Positions 2,361 through 60,025 of a stretch of 64,000 bases of DNA are shown here, in pieces. The translations under genes and the position numbers were made by a program. Numbering within the stretch: position 1 is the stretch's first letter; each line of letters begins with the position of its first letter. Where the stretch lies: NCBI RefSeq assembly GCF_004010195.1, contig NC_057741.1, forward strand, positions 25,811,147 to 25,875,146, given 5' to 3'. Under the pieces are notes generated by a model. It saw only the letters and a list, made by a program, of their open reading frames with translations. It was not told the DNA's origin and did not search any database. Source of the stretch: Chiloscyllium plagiosum (lineage: Eukaryota).

Positions 2361-4721
2361 TCTTGTTTTTCCCTCATAAGGCAATCTGCAATTATTCCAT
2401 TGAAGTAAACAGCATGTATCAAAGACCACATTTTATGACTTCATGCTCCCATTGCAAAACCTTGCTCAACAGGAGATCAGGTCAGACAATTGGACATGGA
2501 GATCACCAAATCTCATTCTTGCCTCCTCCAATGATTCACTCAATCAGATTAAGAACTGTAAAATGGCAACAGCTGTAGCTCCATCACAAAAGTCTCTGCG
2601 GGCCACTTATAATCGGATCGAGGCACAGAGTGATACAGCACGGAAACAGACCGATGCTTTGTCATCGAGTGAAGCTCTTCACTTAGACTGTAGAAAGTCT
2701 AGAATAGAGAATTAAATTCTTTGCAATTATACTTGAAAACACAACAGAATGTCAATAGCTAAATGAAGACTGTGGAGGATGTAAGAAGGATGAAAAATTG
2801 AACAGTGAATGTCTCCTTTGTAAAGGAAAAGATATAGTGGTCAGCTGCTTCTTGCCCATACTGTGTTGGATATAAAGTGATAAGTAAGACTCGGTTTGTG
2901 TGCAAGGTGTTGAGCAATAAATAAGGCTCAGTTTGAGTGTGAGGTTTTGGTATAAAATGTGCCTTTTTACTTGAAACAAGCATTTAGAAAGAGATAGAAG
3001 TTGAATCCATAATTACAGTTTTTAAAAAGAAAATTGACCAATACTTGGAAAGGATCTTTAAGTGTTCTGTGTTGAGAGGCAGGGGAATAGAAATACATGC
3101 GATAACTGTTTTAAGGAGTTATCACTGTAGTAAAGAGATGAATGGCCTTGTTTGTAACATAAGCATATTTGGGCCTAAAGAGAGGCCCAGGGATCAAACT
3201 TCAAGTTGCAGAAGGAAACCTAGAGCTTTCTTCACTATCACAATGTCCAAGTAATAGACTCACCAATTTTAAGAGCATTTAAATGGTCATTGGATAAACA
3301 TATGGATGATAATGGAATGGTGTAGGTTAGATGGGCCTCAGGTTCCATAGGTCAGTGCAACATCGAGGGCCGAAGAGCCTCTACTGCGCTGTAGTGTTCT
3401 ATGTTCTATTAATGTCTTGCTCTTCACCACTTTCCTAAATGCCAGGGACCAATTCTGAAGGTTCTGGGCTCACATTACTGATTTCTGTCACCCCAGCCTG
3501 AGGCAGTTAATGCTGAGTTCCTGCAGGGGCCGGATCTCGTGTAAATATTTTAAAGGAAAAGTTGGCTGAAATTTTTTGTGCTCTGGCGTTATTGAGATTT
3601 GGGACTTTTTAAAATATTTTTTCATGGGACATGGTGCCTCTGGCAAAGCCAGGAGTTGTTTCTATCCCTAATTGCCCCTGAGCTGAGTGACTTGCTTCAC
3701 TATTTCAGAGGGCAGCTGTGAATCTGCAGTCACGTATCAGCCAAACAACTTCCTTCCCTAAAAGTCATTAGTGAGCCAAATAGGTTTTAAAATGGCCACT
3801 GTTGAGATAAGATTAGATATTCCACATTTATTAATTGAATTTAAATTTGACTAATTGCTGTGGAGTAATTTTAATCCCTGCCCGTTGTTTCAACACAATA
3901 ATCCATTCAACACAAGGACTTTATTGAAGCGAACCTTAAGATATTTGCCAATAGTTTGTACACCTTAAGGTGGAAGTCACACGTCTATGGTCGACTGGGA
4001 CATATGTAAATGATGACCTTTCAATCAAGACGTCCCCTTTTCACACAAAGAAAAGACATGCATTATCATGTATATTTATAGATATCCAAGTTACCAACCA
4101 AAGACACTACTGTGCTCACGCCTTGGCAAGTTGTTAGTTCCAACAGTCTCTGTGCATGCATTTCACATACAATCCTTAAATCATGCTGGTCTCTTATTGG
4201 CATGTGTTTCATTGCTGTTGGCTATTGATCTGGATGATGTTGTTTTTCCAGAGAATGTCATTCCTGTGTCATCTCTTGTTGCTGTGGTAGCTGCTGTTTA
4301 TTTTCTGTTGCTGTGGACCTCTGGATTTGATAGCTGATATGTGAATCGTGCAGGTAGTGTATGGTTCACTTCTTCCTGATCAGACACACACAGTTGAGGA
4401 ACAGCATTTCTAGTTGGGAGTATGCATTTGATGTTGTAATGGTATATATAGTAATTCACTTCCACTGCATATAGTCAAGGAGACAGCTGCTCCATGCAGG
4501 TCCCAAGTTGCCCACTTGGATTGGCATTTGTTGTTTAATCATAGAATCCCTACAGTGTGGAAATGGGCCATTTTGTCCCAACAAGTCTACACTGACCTTC
4601 TGGAGAGTATCCCACACACACTCATTCCTCTATCCTATTATTCTACATTTCTCCTGACTAAAACACCTAACCTACACACCCCTGAACACTTTGGGCAATT
4701 TAGCATGGCCAATTCACCTAA

Positions 4722-6231
4722 CTTTCGAATCCTCCCACTACCTCCAGATGAAATGGGTAGCCATGGGCACCCGCATGGGCCCCAGCTATGCCTGTCTCTT
4801 CATCAGCTACATGGAACAGTCTATCTTCCTGAGTTACACCGGCACCACCCCCCACCTTTTCCTCCGTTACATTGATGACTACATGAGGAGGTTGAACAGT
4901 TCATCAACTTCACCAACACATTCCACCCTGACCTTAAATTCACCTGCACTATCTCTGACACCTCCCTCCCCTTCCTGGACCTCTCCATCTCCATCAATGA
5001 CAACCGACTCAACACTGACATTTTTACAAACCCATCGAGTTCCACAGTTACCTGGACTACACCTACTCCTACCCTACCTCCTGGTAAAATGCTATCCTGT
5101 ATTGCCAATTCCTCCGCCTCCACCGCATCTGCTCCCAGGAGGACCAGTGCCACCACAGTACACACCAGATGGCCTCCTTTTTTACAGACCAAAATTTCCC
5201 CTCCCATGTGGTTAAAGATGCCCTCCAATCCATCTCATCCACATCCCGCATCTCTGCCCTCAAACCCCACCCCTCCAACCGCAACAAGGACAGAACCCCC
5301 TGGTCCTCACCTTCCACCCCACCAACCTCTGCATAAATTGTGTCATCCACTGACATTTTCGCCACCTCCAAATGGACCCCACCACCAGGGATATATTTCC
5401 CTCCCCACCGCTATCCGCTTTCCGCAAGGACCGTTCCCTCCGTGACTACCTGGTCAGGTCCACGTTCCCCAACAACCCACCCTCCCTTCCTGGTACCTTC
5501 CCCTGCTACCACAGGAATTGCAAAATCTGCACCCACACCTCCCCCCTCACCTCCATCCAAGGCCCCAAAGGAGCCTTCGACATCCATCAAAGTTTCACCT
5601 GCACTTCCACACATGTCATTTATTGTATCCATTGCTCCCGATGCGGTCTCCTCTACACTAGGGAGACCGGACGCCTTCTCGCACAGCGCTTCAGAGAACA
5701 TTTCTGGGACACTCACACCAATCAATCCCACCGCCCCGTGGCGGAACATTTCAACTCCCCCTCCCACTCTGCTGAGGACATGCAGGTCCTGGGCCTCCTC
5801 CACCACCATACCCTCACCACCGGACGCCTGGAGGAAGAACGCCTCATCTTCCGCCTTGGGACCCTCCAATCCCATGCCATCAATATGGACTTCACCAGTT
5901 TCCTCATTTTCCCCTCCCCCCATCTTACCCCAGATCCAACCTTCCAGATCAGCACCAGCCTCATGACCTGTCCCACCTATCGGCTCCATCCTCCTCTCCG
6001 ACCTATCAACTTTACCCCCACCTCCATCCATCTTTTGCACTTCTCCCCAGCCCGACTCCCCACCCATTTATCTCTCCACCCCCGAGGCTCCCATCCTCAT
6101 TCCTGATGAACGGCTTTTGCCCGAAACATCGATTCTCCTGCTCTTCAGATGCTGCCTGACCTGCTGTGCTTTTCCAGCACCACACTAATCTTGATTCTAA
6201 TCTCCAGCATCTGCTGTACCCACTTCTGCCT
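4722..6231 (+). mobile_element. Penelope-like element, 5'-truncated (RT C-terminal part, GIY-YIG endonuclease, hammerhead-like 3' end)
   Basis: RT motifs AMGTRMGPSYACLF and FLRYIDD; endonuclease motifs FTCTSTHVIYCIHCSRCGLLYTRETGR...RFREH and EEERLIFRLGTLQ. 11-bp TSD aattcacctaa at 4711-4721 and 6232-6242. Frameshifted. Confidence 0.92.
6103..6130 (+). ncRNA. Minimal type-I hammerhead ribozyme-like core in the Penelope terminal region
   Basis: CTGATGA-A-(c)GGC-tttt-GCC(c)-GAAA-C-ATC, i.e. the CUGANGA and GAAA boxes flanking stem II. Activity is untested. Confidence 0.55.
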
Positions 6232-11628: not shown

Positions 11629-14600
11629 CCTGTACAAGAAGAACGGATTGCACCTAAATTGGAAGGGGCCGAATATACTGACAGGGAGATTTGCTAGAGC
11701 TGCTCAGGAGGATTTAAACTAGTAAGGTGGGGATTGGGGGGGCAGGTGTGGGGTGGGACCCTGGGAGATAGTGAAGAAAGAGGTCAATCTGAGACTGGTA
11801 CAGTTGATAAAAGAAGCGAGTCAAACAGTAAGGGCAGGCAGGGACAAAACAGAGATAAATTAAACGGTATTTATTTCAATGCAAGAGGCCGAACAGGGAA
11901 GGCAGATGAACTGAGGGTATGGTTAGGAACATGGAACTGGGATATCATAGCAATTGCAGAAACATGGCTCAGGGATGGACAGGACTGGCAGCTTAATGTT
12001 CCAGGATACAAATGCTACAGGAAGGATAGAAAGGGAGGCAAGAGAGGAGTGGGGGGGAGGTGGCATTTTTGATAAGGGATTTCAATACAGCTGTGCTGAG
12101 GGAGGATATTCCTGGAAATACATCTAGGGAAGTTATTTGGGTGGAACTGAGAAATAAGAAAGGGATCATCACCTTATTGGGATTGTATTATAGATCCCCA
12201 ATAGTCAGCGGGAAATCTCAGCTATCTGTAAGAATAATAGGGTGGTTATAGTAGGGGATTTTAACTTTCCAAACGCAGACTGGGTCTGCCATAATGTTGA
12301 GGGTTTAGATGGAGAGGAATTTGTTAAGTGTGTACAAGACAATTTTCTGATTCAGTATGTGGATGTACCTACTAGAGAAGGTGCAAAACTTGACCTAATC
12401 TTGGGAAATAAGGCAGGGCAGGTGACTGAGGTGTCAGTGGGGGAGCACTTTGGGGCCAGCGACCATAATTCTATTCGTTTTAAAATAGTGATGGAAAAGG
12501 ATAGACCAGATCTAAAAGTTGAAGTTCTAAATTGGAGAAAGGCTAATTTTGACGGTATTAGGCAAGAATTTTTAAAAGCTGATTGGAGGCAGATGTTCAC
12601 AGGTAAAGGGACGGCTGGAAAATGGGAAGCCTTCAGAAATGAGACAACAAGAATCCAGAGAAAGTACATTCCTGTCAGGGTGAAAGGAAAGGCTGGTAGG
12701 TACAGGGAATGGTGGATGACTAAAGAAATTGAGGTTTCGGTTAAGAAAAAGAAGGAAGCATATGTCAGGTTTAGACAGGATAGATCGAGTGAATCCTTAG
12801 AAGAGTATAAAGGTATTAGGAGTATACTTACGAGGGAAATCAGGAGGGCAAAAAGGGAACATGAGATAGCTTAGGCTAATAGAATTAAGGAGAATTCAAA
12901 GGGTTTTTACAAATACATTAAGGAGAAAAGGGTAACTAGGGTGAGAATAGGGCCCCTCAAAGATCAGCAAGGCGGCCTTTGTGTGGAGCTGCAGGAGTTG
13001 GGGGAGATACTAAATGAGTATTGTGCATCAGTATTTACTGTGGAAAAGGACATGGAATATATAGAATCTACAGAGGAGGAAGTACTGAATATCTTGAAAT
13101 GCCTAAAGGTGGATAAATCCCCAGGACCTGATCAGGTGTACCCTAGGACTCTGTGGGAAGCTAGGGAAATGATGCTGGGCCTTTTGCTGAGATATTTGTA
13201 TCATCAATAGTCACACTTGAGGTGCCGGAAGACTGGAGGTTGGCTAACTTGGTGCCACAGTTTAAGAAGGGTGGTAAGGACAAGCCAGAGAACTATAGAC
13301 CAGTGAGCCTGACGTTGGTGGTGGGCAAGTTGTTGGAGGGAATCCTGAGGGACTGGGTGTTCATGTATTTGGAAAGGCAAGGACTGATTAGGAATAGTCA
13401 ACATGGCATTATGCATGGGAAATCATGTCTCACAAACTTGATTGAGTTTTTTGAAGAAGTAACAAAGAGGATTGATGAGGGCAGAGTGGCAGGTGTGATC
13501 TATATGGACTTCATTAATGAGTTCGACAAGGTTCCCCATGGGAGACTAGTTGGCAAGGTTAGATCTCATGGAATACAGGGAGAACTAGCCATTTGGATAC
13601 AGAACTGNNNNNNNNNNNNNNNNNNNNNNNNNNNNNNNNNNNNNNNNNNNNNNNNNNNNNNNNNNNNNNNNNNNNNNNNNNNNNNNNNNNNNNNNNNNNN
13701 NNNNNNNNNNNNNNNNNNNNNNNNNNNNNNNNNNNNNNNNNNNNNNNNNNNNNNNNNNNNNNNNNNNNNNNNNNNNNNNNNNNNNNNNNNNNNNNNNNNN
13801 NNNNNNNNNNNNNNNNNNNNNNNNNNNNNNNNNNNNNNNNNNNNNNNNNNNNNNNNNNNNNNNNNNNNNNNNNNNNNNNNNNNNNNNNNNNNNNNNNNNN
13901 NNNNNNNNNNNNNNNNNNNNNNNNNNNNNNNNNNNNNNNNNNNNNNNNNNNNNNNNNNNNNNNNNNNNNNNNNNNNNNNNNNNNNNNNNNNNNNNNNNNN
14001 NNNNNNNNNNNNNNNNNNNNNNNNNNNNNNNNNNNNNNNNNNNNNNNNNNNNNNNNNNNNNNNNNNNNNNNNNNNNNNNNNNNNNNNNNNNNNNNNNNNN
14101 NNNNNNNNNNNNNNNNNNNNNNNNNNNNNNNNNNNNNNNNNNNNNNNNNNNNNNNNNNNNNNNNNNNNNNNNNNNNNNNNNNNNNNNNNNNNNNNNNNNN
14201 NNNNNNNNNNNNNNNNNNNNNNNNNNNNNNNNNNNNNNNNNNNNNNNNNNNNNNNNNNNNNNNNNNNNNNNNNNNNNNNNNNNNNNNNNNNNNNNNNNNN
14301 NNNNNNNNNNNNNNNNNNNNNNNNNNNNNNNNNNNNNNNNNNNNNNNNNNNNNNNNNNNNNNNNNNNNNNNNNNNNNNNNNNNNNNNNNNNNNNNNNNNN
14401 NNNNNNNNNNNNNNNNNNNNNNNTATAGGGAGATGCTGAACAGGCTGGGTCTGCTTTCCCTGGAGCGTCGGAGGCTGAGGGGTGACCTTAAAGAGGTTTG
14501 TAAAATCTAGAGGGGCATGGAGGGATAAATAGACAAAGTCATTTCCCTGGGGTGGGGAGTCCATAACTTGAGGGCAAAGGTTTAATGTGAGAGGGAAAAG

Positions 14601-47084: not shown

Positions 47085-47303
47085 ATGATGGAGCGAGCCG
47101 CCGCTGAGGCCGTCTCTCAGGTGGTGCTGCCCGGGGACCTGCTGACTTTCCCGCCCAACTCCGGGGACAGGGTCCTGTGCGGGCCCGGCCTGAGGCGCCA
47201 GGGCTGCGGGCAGCTGTCCGGACAAGCTCTGGTGGCCTGCAAGTCCGGCGTGCTCCGGCAGAAAGAGCCCTCGGTCTACTGGGTGGAGTCGCAGCAGAAG
47301 CGG
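47085..47303 (+). CDS. EXOSC3: Exosome complex component RRP40, exon 1 (73 codons)
   Basis: [18 protein letters not shown]...VLCGPGLRR...[22 protein letters not shown] matches the RRP40 N-terminal motifs (VVLPG, GPGL, YWVDSQQKR). Donor CGG|GTGAGG at 47304; CpG-rich context. The start could be the ATG at 47085 or at 47088. Confidence 0.95.
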
Positions 47304-48807: not shown

Positions 48808-48957
48808 TATGTACCAGCTAAAGGAGAATACGTGATCGGAGTTGTGACTACAAAGTCTGGTGATATATTCAAAGTTGATGTTGGAGGAAGTGAACAAGCT
48901 TCATTGTCATATTTAGCATTTGAAGGAGCTACGAAACGAAATCGACCAAATGTCCAA
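48808..48957 (+). CDS. EXOSC3: RRP40 exon 2 (150 nt; S1 domain)
   Basis: Acceptor ttttttcag|TAT and donor CAA|GTAAGA; encodes [50 protein letters not shown], a characteristic RRP40 segment. Confidence 0.97.
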
Positions 48958-51755: not shown

Positions 51756-53507
51756 GCTCAGAGATGCATCTGAATTCTGGTCCAGGCATGGTATAATCAA
51801 ATTCTTAATTGGTTTACTGATGCATCCATAGTTCCGAGTCAATTAGGTGGTGAATGCTCAATTTGTTTGTTTTTTTTTTTAAAAAGAATAGTCATCTACT
51901 GACATCACTTCTCATTATCTATTGATTGCTATGTTAGGTATTTTTAATCAACCTCTTCAGAAGTTTTGTTACACGCATTTGAAATGAGACCTGAGCCCAG
52001 GCCTTCTGGCTCAGAAGTAGGAGCACAATTAGTGCATTCAAGAACTCTAAACATTTTTTCTTTATCTATGGACGGCTCACATCTAAGTGCTTGTGATTGC
52101 TGATGAAGTGATGACATTGCCCTTGGGTGATTTCAAGCTACCAATCTAGTGATAGTGAAACACGCTGAACAGTTGTACCACAGAAGCAGATCAGTTTAGT
52201 CTTTTAACTTGTGATTTACCAGTGAGGTCATCCTAGCTCATATAGCTTTACCTGTCCGTTCATCAAATTTTATAGCTTACCATTAAACGTTTTATGCCAT
52301 CTTAGCCCAGTTATTTAGGATAGGGGCTCACATAAGCTGTTATGTGAGCTCATTGTCTCAGTTTTTGCTTAATTGTAAGAGTGCCTCATTAAATCAAACT
52401 CCTTGTCAGTGAATGCTTGTGTTAGATGCCCAACTGCTAGGTGATATTTTTCTCCATGATTTTGGATGTTTGATCTGTGGATGTGGATGCCTGGAATGAG
52501 TCTCTTAATTTTTAAAATGGATGTAGTGAAAAGTTGCATGTAACCTTGAATCTATAATTCTAATAACAAAAGGTTGCAAAGTTCTAATACCAACAAATTT
52601 AAAACCTGGGTAATAGCAAGAAGTGTAAGTGCATAATGAGCAGTATATAAAGTGAGGTGGTGAATTATCCTTGTACATTCAGTCCCTACATAGTCTAAAG
52701 TAATTTAATTCAAAGGATTATACAATCATAAATGTAAACATTGTTACAAAGTTAATAATTATATTTAGTCATTGTCGCTTCTAAACCTCAAAATTAAAAC
52801 AAAGCTAATATAGAACAGCTCCTATATTTCCTTTTTCTCCTCACTTTCCACAGTAAATCTCTTCCAGCCTTCCTTTTGTTAACCAAAGCCTTCTGATTAA
52901 TATTCAAGTTGGGGGGGAAAAAGTGAGCCTGTTCAACCTTGGAGGTTGAAAGTTCTTGCAGTGTAGCTCTCTGAAATCTTTCTCTTTCTTTGTCAAGTGA
53001 AGCAAGTGAAGTCACATGATATTAAGGGAAGAAAAGTCTATTGTGGTCACACTTGGGCAGGATTATATTTTAGATTAACTGAATATATTTCGACCTGAAC
53101 TAAATTGAACTCATGGTGAAATATCAAACTCCCTACTATTCCCACAGTAATGTCAAGTTCTGCTTCAAATTTTAAAAAACCTTGTTTTCACATGGTGAGG
53201 GGGGTAAAGCAAAGCTAAGGTAGCTAGAGGTGGTGATTGATTCGACAATACATGTTCAGTTGTAGGGGAGTCTCTCGGAATTGATGCAAAGAAGTTACAT
53301 GCAAAATCTAGAAATAAGGGCTTGCTGTAGGAAAAAAACAAACAGAACAACTGACTTGTTTTTTTTTGTGTGTATCTGAGTTGATTTAATATTGGCAATA
53401 ACATTAAAACATGCCAAATTATATGATCACAAATATTAACTATAAATAATATGCATACTTTAAATAGTAAGTTTTTTTTAAAATCTTTCCTTTATACATT
53501 ATTCTAG

Positions 53508-53659
53508 GTTGGAGATCTTGTTTTTGCACAGTTTGTTGTGGCCAATAAAGATATGGAACCAGAACTGGTTTGCATTGACAGCTGTGGCCGATCTAATGGG
53601 ATGGGAGTGATTGGACCAGATGGATTATTATTTAAAGTTTCACTGAGTATTGCACGCAA
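53508..53659 (+). CDS. EXOSC3: RRP40 exon 3, copy 1 (152 nt)
   Basis: Acceptor attctag|GTT and donor AA|GTATGT; encodes [50 protein letters not shown](K), in frame with exon 2. Confidence 0.95.
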
Positions 53660-53733
53660 GTATGTCACAAATTTGTCAAGACTCTGAGCTCTTTACTGCC
53701 AGTGAATTGTCTTAATTACATTTTGAATTTCAG

Positions 53734-53941
53734 GCTGCTTTCTCCAAACTGTGACGTCATGAAGAACCTCGGGGAATTGTACCCATTTGAAGTAGTGGTT
53801 GGAATGAATGGACGGATATGGGTAAAAGCCAGAACATTGAAGCATACGTTATTAGTGGCTAATGTATTGGAAAGCTGTGGGAACATGACTGCGGAACAAA
53901 GGAGACATGTCTTCAAAAAACTGTCAGAAAATGTGCCATAA
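53734..53941 (+). CDS. EXOSC3: RRP40 exon 4, copy 1 (KH domain, stop TAA)
   Basis: Acceptor tttcag|G after a 74-nt intron; encodes LLSPNC...YPFEVVVGMNGRIWVKA...KKLSENVP*. Spliced CDS is 219+150+152+208 = 729 nt, or 242 aa. Confidence 0.95.
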
Positions 53942-54028
53942 ATCCAAGACTCATCAAATTCAATATGAGTGTTTTGAACTTGGATAAATGTCCTTGAAGA
54001 TACAAACACTGGAAGAAAAATGATTTCG

Positions 54029-54104
54029 GCTGCCTGACCTGCTGTGCTGTTCCAGCAATAAAGTTTCAACTTTGATCTCCAGCATCTGCAGACCTCACTT
54101 TCTC
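54029..54104 (+). mobile_element. 76-bp Penelope 3'-terminal fragment at the duplication junction
   Basis: gctgcctgacctgctgtgctgttccagc...atctccagcatctgcagacctcactttctc, homologous to 6150-6230 and 45245-45320; contains AATAAA at 54057-54062. Confidence 0.9.
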
Positions 54105-54905
54105 TTCAAAGGATTATACAATCATAAATGTAAACATTGTTACAAAGTTAATAATTATATTTAGTCATTTGTCGCTTCTAAACCTCAAAATTAAAACAAA
54201 GCTAATGTAGAACAGCTCCTATATTTCCTTTTTTCTCCTCACTTTCCACAGTAAACCTCTTCCAGCCTTCCTTTTGTTAACCAAAGCCTTCTGATTAATA
54301 TTCAAGTTGGGGGGGAAAAAGTGAGCCTGTTCAACCTTGGAGGTTGAAAGTTCTTGCAGTGTAGCTCTCTGAAATCTTTCACTTTCTTTGTCAAGTGAAG
54401 CAAGTGAAGTCACATGATATTAAGGGAAGGAAAGTCTATTGTGGTCACACTTGGACAGGATTATATTTTAGATTAACTGAATATATTTCGACCTGAACTA
54501 AATTGAACTCATGGTGAAATATCAAACTCCCTACTATTCCCACAGTAATGTCAAGTTCTGCTTCAAATTTTAAAAAACCTTGTTTTCACATGGTGAGGGG
54601 GGTAAAGCAAAGCTAAGGTAGCTAGAGGTGGTGATTGACTCGACAATACATGTTCAGTTGTAGGGGAGTCTCTCGGAATTGATGCAAAGAAGTTACATGC
54701 AAAATCTAGAAATAAGGGCTTGCTGTAGGAAAAAAACAAACAGAACAACTGACTTGTTTTTTTTTGTGTGTATCTGAGTTGATTTAATATTGGCAATAAC
54801 ATTAAAACATGCCAAATTATATGATCACAAATATTAACTATAAATAATATGCATACTTTAAATAGTAAGTTTTTTTTAAAATCTTTCCTTTATACATTAT
54901 TCTAG

Positions 54906-55057
54906 GTTGGAGATCTTGTTTTTGCACAGTTTGTTGTGGCCAATAAAGATATGGAACCAGAACTGGTTTGCATTGACAGCTGTGGCCGATCTAATGGGAT
55001 GGGAGTGATTGGACCAGATGGATTATTATTTAAAGTTTCACTGAGTATTGCACGCAA
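54906..55057 (+). CDS. EXOSC3: Duplicated RRP40 exon 3, copy 2
   Basis: Identical by eye to 53508-53659, with intact AG/GT splice sites (offset 1398). Confidence 0.75.
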
Positions 55058-55131
55058 GTATGTCACAAATTTGTCAAGACTCTGAGCTCTTTACTGCCAG
55101 TGAACTGTCTTAATTACATTTTGAATTTCAG

Positions 55132-55339
55132 GCTGCTTTCTCCAAACTGTGACGTCATGAAGAACCTCGGGGAATTGTACCCATTTGAAGTAGTGGTTGG
55201 AATGAATGGACGGATATGGGTAAAAGCCAGAACATTGAAGCATACGTTATTAGTGGCTAATGTATTGGAAAGCTGTGGGAACATGACTGCGGAACAAAGG
55301 AGACATGTCTTCAAAAAACTGTCAGAAAATGTGCCATAA
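55132..55339 (+). CDS. EXOSC3: Duplicated RRP40 exon 4, copy 2, followed by the native 3' UTR
   Basis: Same translation as 53734-53941 in the ORF track; AATAAA follows at 55465-55470. Confidence 0.75.
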
Positions 55340-55464
55340 ATCCAAGACTCATCAAATTCAATATGAGTGTTTTGAACTTGGATAAATGTCCTTGAAGATA
55401 CAAACACTGGAAGAAAAATGATTTCGATTATAACATGAACAGTTTGTCTGACGTTTTGATAACT

Positions 55465-55470
55465 AATAAA
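55465..55470 (+). terminator. Probable native polyadenylation signal of EXOSC3
   Basis: AATAAA ~125 nt after the copy-2 stop codon, followed by T-rich sequence. Confidence 0.6.
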
Positions 55471-58540: not shown

Positions 58541-59789
58541 GTGGAGTAAAAAGCCAGTTGAATGGCAGCCCTCAATTATTTAAAAAATGACATATGGATC
58601 ACTAATGACCTCTAAGGTGAGAAATCTGTTATCTTTACTTGGTCTGGCATAAATGTGAGTCCAGATCCATAGCAATGTGATTGAATCTTAAGTATCCTCT
58701 GGGTAATTAGAGATGGGTGAGATATGTTGGTCCAACCAGTGACAGTCCCATCTCTCAAATTTTGTTTTTTAATTTGCAGCTAATTGCAGTTTCAATGATT
58801 GGGGAAAGACCAGAAACACAAATTTGTACTCTTAGTTCCAAAAAATGTTGACTGACTCAGTCACTAATTCTGATTTCTCTCCACAGATGCTGTCAGACCT
58901 GCTGAGCTTTTCCAGCAATTTTTATTTTGATACTGTCCTGTCATATCATTTCAGAGTATCATATGGACATCAATTTAAATTGGAAAATTAATGTCCTATT
59001 AAGATTAGGGGCAAATGGAGTCTCCATAGTTTATTTGTATAATTCCCCTATTACTGGTGAGCATATTTTCTTAGTGTTTCTGTGTGGAAAAAAAATGAAT
59101 CTCTGGATTGGTTTTTCTGCTTCTTTGCTGACAGGTTTAAAGGTGGGGTCACGTAAAATCCTGCTGCCTAACTCTCTGCCTACCAAACCTCGATGGGGAG
59201 GGAGTACAGGGGGAGGTGTCAGGTGGTTTGTCTGATTTTTGGGCCTATTGAAGCCTGGGAGTAGCTAACGAATGGCCATTTAAGTGTCTCATCACTGTGG
59301 TTGGGGTAGCCAATACTGGAACACCAGCAGCTTCATCTGGCTAGGGCTGAGCAAGGATAAAGAATCTAATTTTCAGTTGGAAGATAATGCCCCACCCTGA
59401 TCATTTCCCCTGCACATAATTCTCACGTCCATCACATTACTTGTTGATACACATGACCGTGGATTTAATTAGGTACTTCAGCAAGGTAGGACTAACTGAC
59501 TGGAACTGCAGGGGTTACAGAGCTGCCAAGTGTTATTTCAAGGCTCCTCGCAGTGGGGACTGCTTTTGAAATCATACATGAGGTCCCCTCTGGAGTTTTA
59601 ACACCAGGGCCCCCCTGATGTACCTATTGGAGGAAACTCCTATGAAAATCTACCCCCCCATACCTGGTCTTCCATTCCCTCAAACTCTCTCCCTGTGGTC
59701 TGCAAATATCCCCGAGTTATCTTCAGTCCAGTTGGGCAATATCCAGGTTTGGGCTGGCAAAAATGTGTACCACTCAAGTGCTAGGTAAT

Positions 59790-60025
59790 GATAATCTCCA
59801 GTTGAAAATGTATTGCTGGAAAAGCACAGCAGGTCAGGCAGCATCCAAGGAGCGGGAGAATCGACGTTTCGGGCATGAGCGCTTCTTCAGGAATGAGGAA
59901 ACTGGAGAAATCGGAGTTCATCCCTTGTGGTTGGAGGGTTCCTAGGCGGAAGATGAGGCGTTCTTCCTCCAACCTTTGTGTTGCTATGGTCTGGCGATGG
60001 AGGAGTCCTCATTTCCCCTCCCCCC
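59790..60025 (-). mobile_element. Penelope 3' fragment with internal deletion
   Basis: EEERLIFRLGTLQPQGMNSDF joined directly to the hammerhead-like terminus through cctcatt microhomology. Confidence 0.75.

Follow-up and report, generated by a model that had tools for sequence, protein, structure and literature searches.

EXOSC3 and its doubled 3' half in the assembly

In the 64,000-nucleotide stretch of Chiloscyllium plagiosum DNA that we analyzed (here called the window), the gene at the locus of interest is EXOSC3, or RRP40, an essential gene of the RNA exosome, which has four exons and an open frame of 242 amino acids. Coding exon 1 (47085..47303, +; Pfam Rrp40_N, E=3.6e-07) and exon 2 (48808..48957, +; Pfam RRP40_S1, E=2.2e-20) are single copy. 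They are followed by exon 3 (53508..53659, +, 152 nt; RRP40 match, E=8e-24) and the coding part of exon 4 (53734..53941, +; Pfam KH_6, E=4.1e-11), with the Rrp40 N-terminal, S1, and KH domains in the expected order. The gene name proposed in the initial annotation is therefore upheld by the profile matches and by the four-exon frame. The GT..AG joint 53659-53734 was found in contigs from the sequencing runs X4 and X9, in which the end of exon 2 also appears as loose sequence ahead of exon 3.

From the end of intron 2 onward, the assembly carries the gene twice. Copy 1 (52709..54028, +) comprises the end of intron 2, exon 3, intron 3, exon 4, and 87 nt of 3' UTR. Copy 2 (54105..55426, +) repeats this segment, with its own exon 3 at 54906..55057 (+) and exon 4 plus UTR at 55132..55426 (+). 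The native 3' UTR continues at 55427..55470 (+) to an AATAAA at 55465-55470, and 59 RNA reads of run X21 pass from the repeat end into it. The direct copies, of 1,320 and 1,322 bp, are 99.3% identical and form by far the best self-match of the window. They differ by seven substitutions and two one-base indels, all intronic, at offsets 63, 102, 123, 150, 275, 324, 349, 533, and 999; eight of the nine lie within 533 bp of the copy start, and none occurs in the last 321 bp, neither of which the initial annotation had noted. The copies agree letter for letter in exon 3 and in exon 4 with its UTR. Self-comparison of the window and alignment of the copies thus reproduced what the initial annotation had given for the copy boundaries, for the number and intronic position of the differences (about seven substitutions and two indels), and for the identity of the coding exons. 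This agreement extends to the assembly sequence and not to one DNA molecule bearing both copies. There is no N between or beside the copies, and the sole gap of the window, at 13608-14423, measures 816 bases; gaps of similar size were common in the loci that we fetched. The assembly as a whole is gap-rich, with 3.56 Gb in 101,977 contigs.

Splicing of exon 3 to the second exon 3 would, as had been calculated from the exon length of 152 nt, shift the reading frame, and no such joint was listed among the raw RNA reads of X21. Two sites in exon 4 or its UTR, 53875 and 53957, are polymorphic in X4, X9, and X21. Three diverged EXOSC3-like copies, with 74-95% identity, lie elsewhere in the genome (C18:23515797-23516016, L003; C6:57835346-57836468, L004; and C33:8570452-8570810). 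In the C18 and C6 copies, the exon 3 and exon 4 matches adjoin without an intron, as in a processed pseudogene, and the C6 copy is interrupted by about 0.9 kb.

A young Penelope-like element between the copies

The two copies are separated by the 76-nt 3' end of a young Penelope-like element, including a 33-nt tail (54029..54104, +), which directly adjoins both. Its 5' join to copy 1 is blunt, with no microhomology and no extra bases. At its other end, the element's normal 3' terminus lies against the start of copy 2, as previously noted and as expected of a target-primed insertion. The fragment contains an AATAAA at 54057-54062, and exact matches to its last 53 nt number 8,917 across the genome.

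The earlier assignment of the fragment to a Penelope-like family held up, given a GIY-YIG domain upstream, inverted 5' copies, and an optional tail. Directly upstream of the same terminus in L014, the GIY-YIG profile (PF01541) scored 25.2 bits against a cut-off of 22.6, and it passed in one of the two GIY-YIG-like pieces scanned; in L007 the end of the ORF continues into the repeat unit. Inversion was flagged in 16 of 30 unselected young copies, and the 33-nt tail is present in some young copies and absent from others. The reverse transcriptase profile RVT_1 gave a match below the cut-off in L070 (E=0.0019) and none in L040. Older copies visibly contain CTGATGA...GAAAC, which we take to be a hammerhead-type motif, and the 76-nt piece is located downstream of this region. 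No hammerhead matched Rfam at the gathering score in the window, and the L007 unit folded no better than shuffled sequences. Tandem 51-54-nt units of the young element's hammerhead region occur in L131-L135 (C6:10710407-10710657) and at C22:36789861-36789946, and the window holds decayed Penelope-type reverse transcriptase and endonuclease-end reading frames at 4658-5212 (+) and 59784-60008 (-).

Ordinary copies of the young family carry target site duplications (TSDs) of 7-18 bp. Among the 16 same-family blocks of the window, this locus included, 4 have convincing TSDs and the others have none; the lengths of 9, 10, 14, and 15 bp match the 9-15 bp first reported for same-family elements in the window. 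GG often stands just before the duplicated sequence at insertion sites (L005-L034 and members of the class described below), and in inverted copies this sequence is frequently followed by CC or C; as uncontrolled observations, the two hint at a nicking preference that is symmetric. In L041, L044, L048, L050, L063, L064, L074, L105, and L112, a short young fragment is joined to a filler. Judged by eye, the fillers derive from the ORF of the element itself or from another repeat, in some cases with a short TSD beyond the filler, and look like frequent template switching.

Recurrence of the layout across the genome

A search with the pattern of a short, 5'-cut copy gave 327 matches, and from the 100 listed we fetched 51 non-inverted-looking copies and 9 inversion-type controls. 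Sorting, partly by eye, divided the 51 into 20 with a flank duplication, 4 inverted, 2 compound, and 25 without. Flank duplications of 29-1,446 bp were therefore present in 20 of 45 short non-inverted young copies among the matches listed, L042 being the weakest of the 20 and L047 having been added by hand. The inversion-type controls had none (0/9). About 30 loci of this class are now listed. Of 30 unselected young copies, one was clearly duplicated (L018, 376 bp around a 72-nt fragment) and a second, L010, is doubtful. In L069 (C6, near 45.677 Mb; L069:1649-4617), copies of 1,446 bp that are 99.1% identical surround 76-77 nt of the element, and 10 of their 13 differences lie within the first 487 bp. 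The duplication at EXOSC3, initially described as unusually large, is thus not so within this assembly. The layout is therefore the product of a recurrent process, whether biological or technical.

Longer duplications were absent 3-13 kb upstream of 12 of the 25 duplication-free short copies (0/12). In the 887 kb scanned, the same layout was found around pieces of another repeat family in L064 and L179. The same sequence held four near-identical, head-to-tail doublets of 143-433 bp without a spacer (L038:128-494, L047:643-928, L058:2647-2968, and L166:2256-3115), which are possibly further assembly doublets. L064:4354-6101 is a tandem array of a 92-bp unit with about 95% identity. The fragments beside copies are of two types, tail-less (34-45 nt) and tailed (68-78 nt). 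The idea of a fixed gap size, with copy length plus fragment length constant, was dropped because copy lengths are alike beside both.

Alleles in other samples

Reads from four of the 24 runs listed (X1, X4, X9, and X21), none of them known to be from the assembled animal, were compared with a single repeat period. X4 and X9 belong to two different studies and resemble RNA in which introns are also covered. At the copy start, contigs of these two samples extend outward into 85 and 984 letters of non-element sequence, and at the copy end one X9 contig extends outward into 27 such letters; contigs of this kind show presence, not absence. Both samples carry the copy 1 alleles at offsets 63, 123, 150, 324, and 349, where the copy 2 alleles were not seen in X4 or X9. 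The copy 2 allele at offset 533 was found in both and that at offset 102 in X9, and both alleles at 275 were found in X4. Three of the nine copy differences (offsets 102, 275, and 533) are therefore ordinary alleles in other samples, and copy 1 matches these samples at the five further sites. Together, the alleles and the non-element flanks suggest that X4 and X9 are single copy and empty at this site and that the assembly's copies are two haplotypes, copy 1 being the common one. Target-primed duplication predicts differences that are private and evenly spread, whereas three of nine are alleles and eight of nine lie in the first 533 bp. Dating the event from the 0.7% divergence was rejected because the copy differences are allelic. 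A real duplication in a heterozygote could also assemble with mixed alleles, so the difference pattern and the reads demonstrate allelism rather than a false join.

X1, the best DNA run, covered 8 of 30 bins. The search for runs listed none as RNA, and word shares, of 0.80 at best, were not taken as evidence. The raw RNA reads of X21 were rejected as an allele test because 118 of 121 carry T at 53957, where both copies have A. Poly-A-like loose ends at 54071 (37 reads, agreement 0.64) fall where other copies have their tail-less end and are no demonstration that the fragment's AATAAA is used at the EXOSC3 locus.

Mirror forms and older subfamilies

If two haplotypes are joined at an insertion, either end of the element should be lost, and mirror forms with a 3'-cut element fit such a join. 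A search for 3'-cut copies gave 56 matches at 30 loci, 26 of them independent. By eye, 12 of the 26 are truly 3'-cut, and 8 of these 12 have duplications of 39-185 bp; L147, L148, and L154 retain the family's usual 5' start without the 3' end. Target-primed insertion starts at the element's 3' end and does not predict mirror forms, which counts against a duplication made during insertion. They are, along with forward forms and the presence of two different haplotypes, predicted by a duplication made after insertion. Here, a break in a heterozygous element would have been repaired across the homologue's empty site, with 1.3 kb copied and then end-joined to the remaining 76 nt. In favor of this route, the anole enzyme nicks AT-rich DNA, possibly within its own pLTR (PMC11167929). 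Against it, with one clear case among 30, such repair would need to have taken place in a few percent of the young copies.

We also examined older subfamilies, in which 50 loci (30 automatic and 20 picked from 70 further listed) were fetched out of 1,293 matches. A near-identical duplication of at least 25 bp was found in none of the 14 short non-inverted copies (by eye), a significant contrast with young copies (Fisher p=0.0013), and in none of the 50 fetched loci. Repair after insertion should have left duplications that persist in older copies, and their absence is likewise not predicted by duplication during insertion. Direct repeats can be lost with time, which could contribute to this result.

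Placement of the differences and of the copy ends

In 10 of the 14 loci having differences between copies, the distance from the last of these to the copy end is 40-51 bp and peaks at 40 and 50 (p=0.0005 when compared with uniform placement, for a window picked post hoc). Three difference-free copies measure 51, 52, and 52 bp, and the last 40 bp hold 2 of 52 differences against 10.2 expected. In a de Bruijn graph, the arm of a bubble ends k-1 bases behind a difference, which yields a fixed end distance of this sort. A biological breakpoint could not keep a fixed distance behind a polymorphism, and copy ends set by the last allelic difference are not predicted by duplication during insertion. 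The EXOSC3 locus, ending 321 bp past its last difference, and L069, ending 76 bp past, both lie outside the 40-51 cluster, so that for EXOSC3 the argument applies by analogy. L018, whose 376-bp copy has a 42-bp end run, forms a bridge between the cluster and the long copies. The EXOSC3 copy also ends 71 bp past the polymorphic site 53957, a distance that chance could give.

The EXOSC3 locus and L069 together have 18 differences in the first 550 bp of each (1,100 bp) and 4 in the remaining 1,668 bp. This front-loading is significant for the pair (p=8e-5), in which the distal part of the EXOSC3 copy is partly coding and therefore expected to differ less, and for L069 alone (p=0.008). Repair after insertion predicts differences along the whole copy, a prediction that fails here. 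Against a reference copy, the elements of the class show 2 mismatches in 729 bp, while 57 differences separate their copy pairs over 4,670 bp, about twice what element age predicts.

Blunt joins and possible duplication during insertion

Of 22 joins in the class, 20 are blunt. Microhomology is less frequent there than expected by chance (p about 0.003), and GG in the target follows the copy end in 7 of 22. Neither the excess of blunt joins nor this GG is explained by plain concatenation of haplotypes. End joining generally leaves microhomology. A duplication made by repair after insertion predicts microhomology, which is depleted instead, and with the points above we consider it very unlikely.

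The depletion of microhomology suggests an enzymatic join instead, as would be expected if a real polymorphic duplication had been made during insertion. Priming at 52709 would have been followed by a stop of reverse transcription after 76 nt and by joining of the cDNA 1.3 kb downstream, whether through a distant second nick, by switching template to local DNA or to nascent EXOSC3 RNA, or by replicating from the other end. Later recombination, or mixed assembly with a single-copy allele, would then account for the allelic differences. Consistent with this route, the element's normal 3' terminus sits exactly at the copy start without a gap. In many short young copies, a filler taken from the element's ORF or another repeat is attached almost bluntly (by eye), which argues that the Penelope enzyme does jump templates. 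There is also precedent in L1, whose TSDs exceed 100 bp in as many as 10% of events in HeLa cells and reach kilobase size when NER is deficient (PMC5223499); 1-10-kb tandem duplications made by L1 are likewise described as large TSDs (bioRxiv 10.1101/2024.12.14.628481). However, a blunt 5' join is not typical of the family, as it was found in 0 of the 8 ordinary non-inverted copies compared from a set of 12, of which 4 had 2-5 bases of microhomology and 4 had 4-8 extra bases. Moreover, the duplication was not seen in X4 or X9. Given these results, we regard a duplication during insertion at EXOSC3 as quite unlikely.

The broader proposition is that, in a few percent of cases, the young Penelope family completes insertion with a blunt jump into flanking DNA, which would give tandem duplications of 30-1,450 bp at hundreds of loci, one such polymorphic allele doubling EXOSC3 exons 3-4 and adding a Penelope polyadenylation signal for copy 1. 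This we judge unlikely, if a little less so. If it were true for the class, Penelope elements would be a germline source of exon duplication, a role that we did not find described.

Probable tandem joining of two haplotypes

The initial annotation interpreted the locus as a real duplication of the 3' half of EXOSC3 by Penelope insertion or repair. This does not emerge as the likeliest account, in view of the allelic differences, the mirror forms, and the lack of such duplications in older subfamilies; a real duplication of any kind at EXOSC3 is, in our estimate, rather improbable though worth keeping in mind. It is probable instead that a heterozygous Penelope insertion in intron 2 has had its empty and filled alleles assembled in tandem and that EXOSC3 is single copy. 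This explanation, an alternative that the initial annotation had itself named, fits better because the copy differences include population alleles and because the layout recurs in young copies, including the mirror form, and is absent from older subfamilies.

That the assembled animal was heterozygous is inferred, as is the way in which the alleles were assembled. The animal would have been heterozygous for a young Penelope-like insertion at 52708|52709. The empty allele would have been written through the insertion site for 1.3 kb, giving copy 1, and then joined gaplessly to a stretch of the filled allele that begins within the element and would contribute the 76 nt and copy 2. Copy 1 would thereby represent the empty haplotype and copy 2 the insertion-bearing one. 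The joint between the element and copy 2 would be real and that between copy 1 and the element false, and the 5' part of the element and a short TSD would be missing from the assembly. The placement of two haplotypes next to each other is a described assembly error (PMC2864568). A haplotype duplication might also be expected as separate contigs with a gap; the copies here adjoin without one, and the original contig boundaries are invisible in the assembly. A search of the assembly for a second haplotig of the left flank found none, which, like the gapless join, counts against this explanation.

If two haplotypes were indeed joined, the biology at EXOSC3 is ordinary, a small polymorphic intronic insertion, and a recurrent error of this assembly has been flagged. 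Scaling 1 clear case in 30 to 8,917 copies gives, as a rough estimate, some hundreds of false copy-fragment-copy loci, which would mimic exon duplications and long TSDs elsewhere in the assembly. If the duplication were real, it would be a rare germline, kilobase-scale duplication coupled to a retroelement, apparently undescribed for Penelope elements. EXOSC3 would still encode the same protein, and transcripts could end after copy 1 by way of the AATAAA in the fragment (54057).

Comparison with known systems

The family resembles EN+ Penelope-like elements (PMC8557442, PMC11167929, and PMC4209133) in the GIY-YIG ORF that precedes the repeat unit, in strong truncation at the 5' side, in 5' copies of inverted orientation, and in an optional 30-40-bp tail. 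Ordinary copies here have 7-18-bp TSDs, and the searches run gave no description of long flank duplications in such elements. Among the search listings, we found no description of long Penelope TSDs, no EXOSC3 duplication in sharks, and no direct report of this artefact at heterozygous insertions.

The rotifer element R9, a site-specific non-LTR element of rDNA, reportedly has an exceptionally long TSD of fixed length. It shares with the present class a retroelement flanked by a long direct repeat of the target, whereas the lengths here vary from 29 to 1,446 bp. The large TSDs and tandem duplications of L1, of 0.1-6 kb, likewise place the element's 3' end at the start of the second copy (PMC5223499; bioRxiv 10.1101/2024.12.14.628481). 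The L1 cases are validated de novo LINE events with identical copies; the EXOSC3 locus, by contrast, involves a Penelope-like element, allelic copy differences, and a class with mirror forms, and is known here from the assembly alone. The closest match to our preferred explanation, the tandem joining of haplotypes, is the set of duplications described by Kelley and Salzberg in 2010 (PMC2864568), in which adjacent near-identical copies differ by alleles and look very recent. The copies described there lie on separate contigs, whereas the EXOSC3 locus has no visible gap, and the heterozygous feature at EXOSC3 is a small transposon insertion with one end kept.
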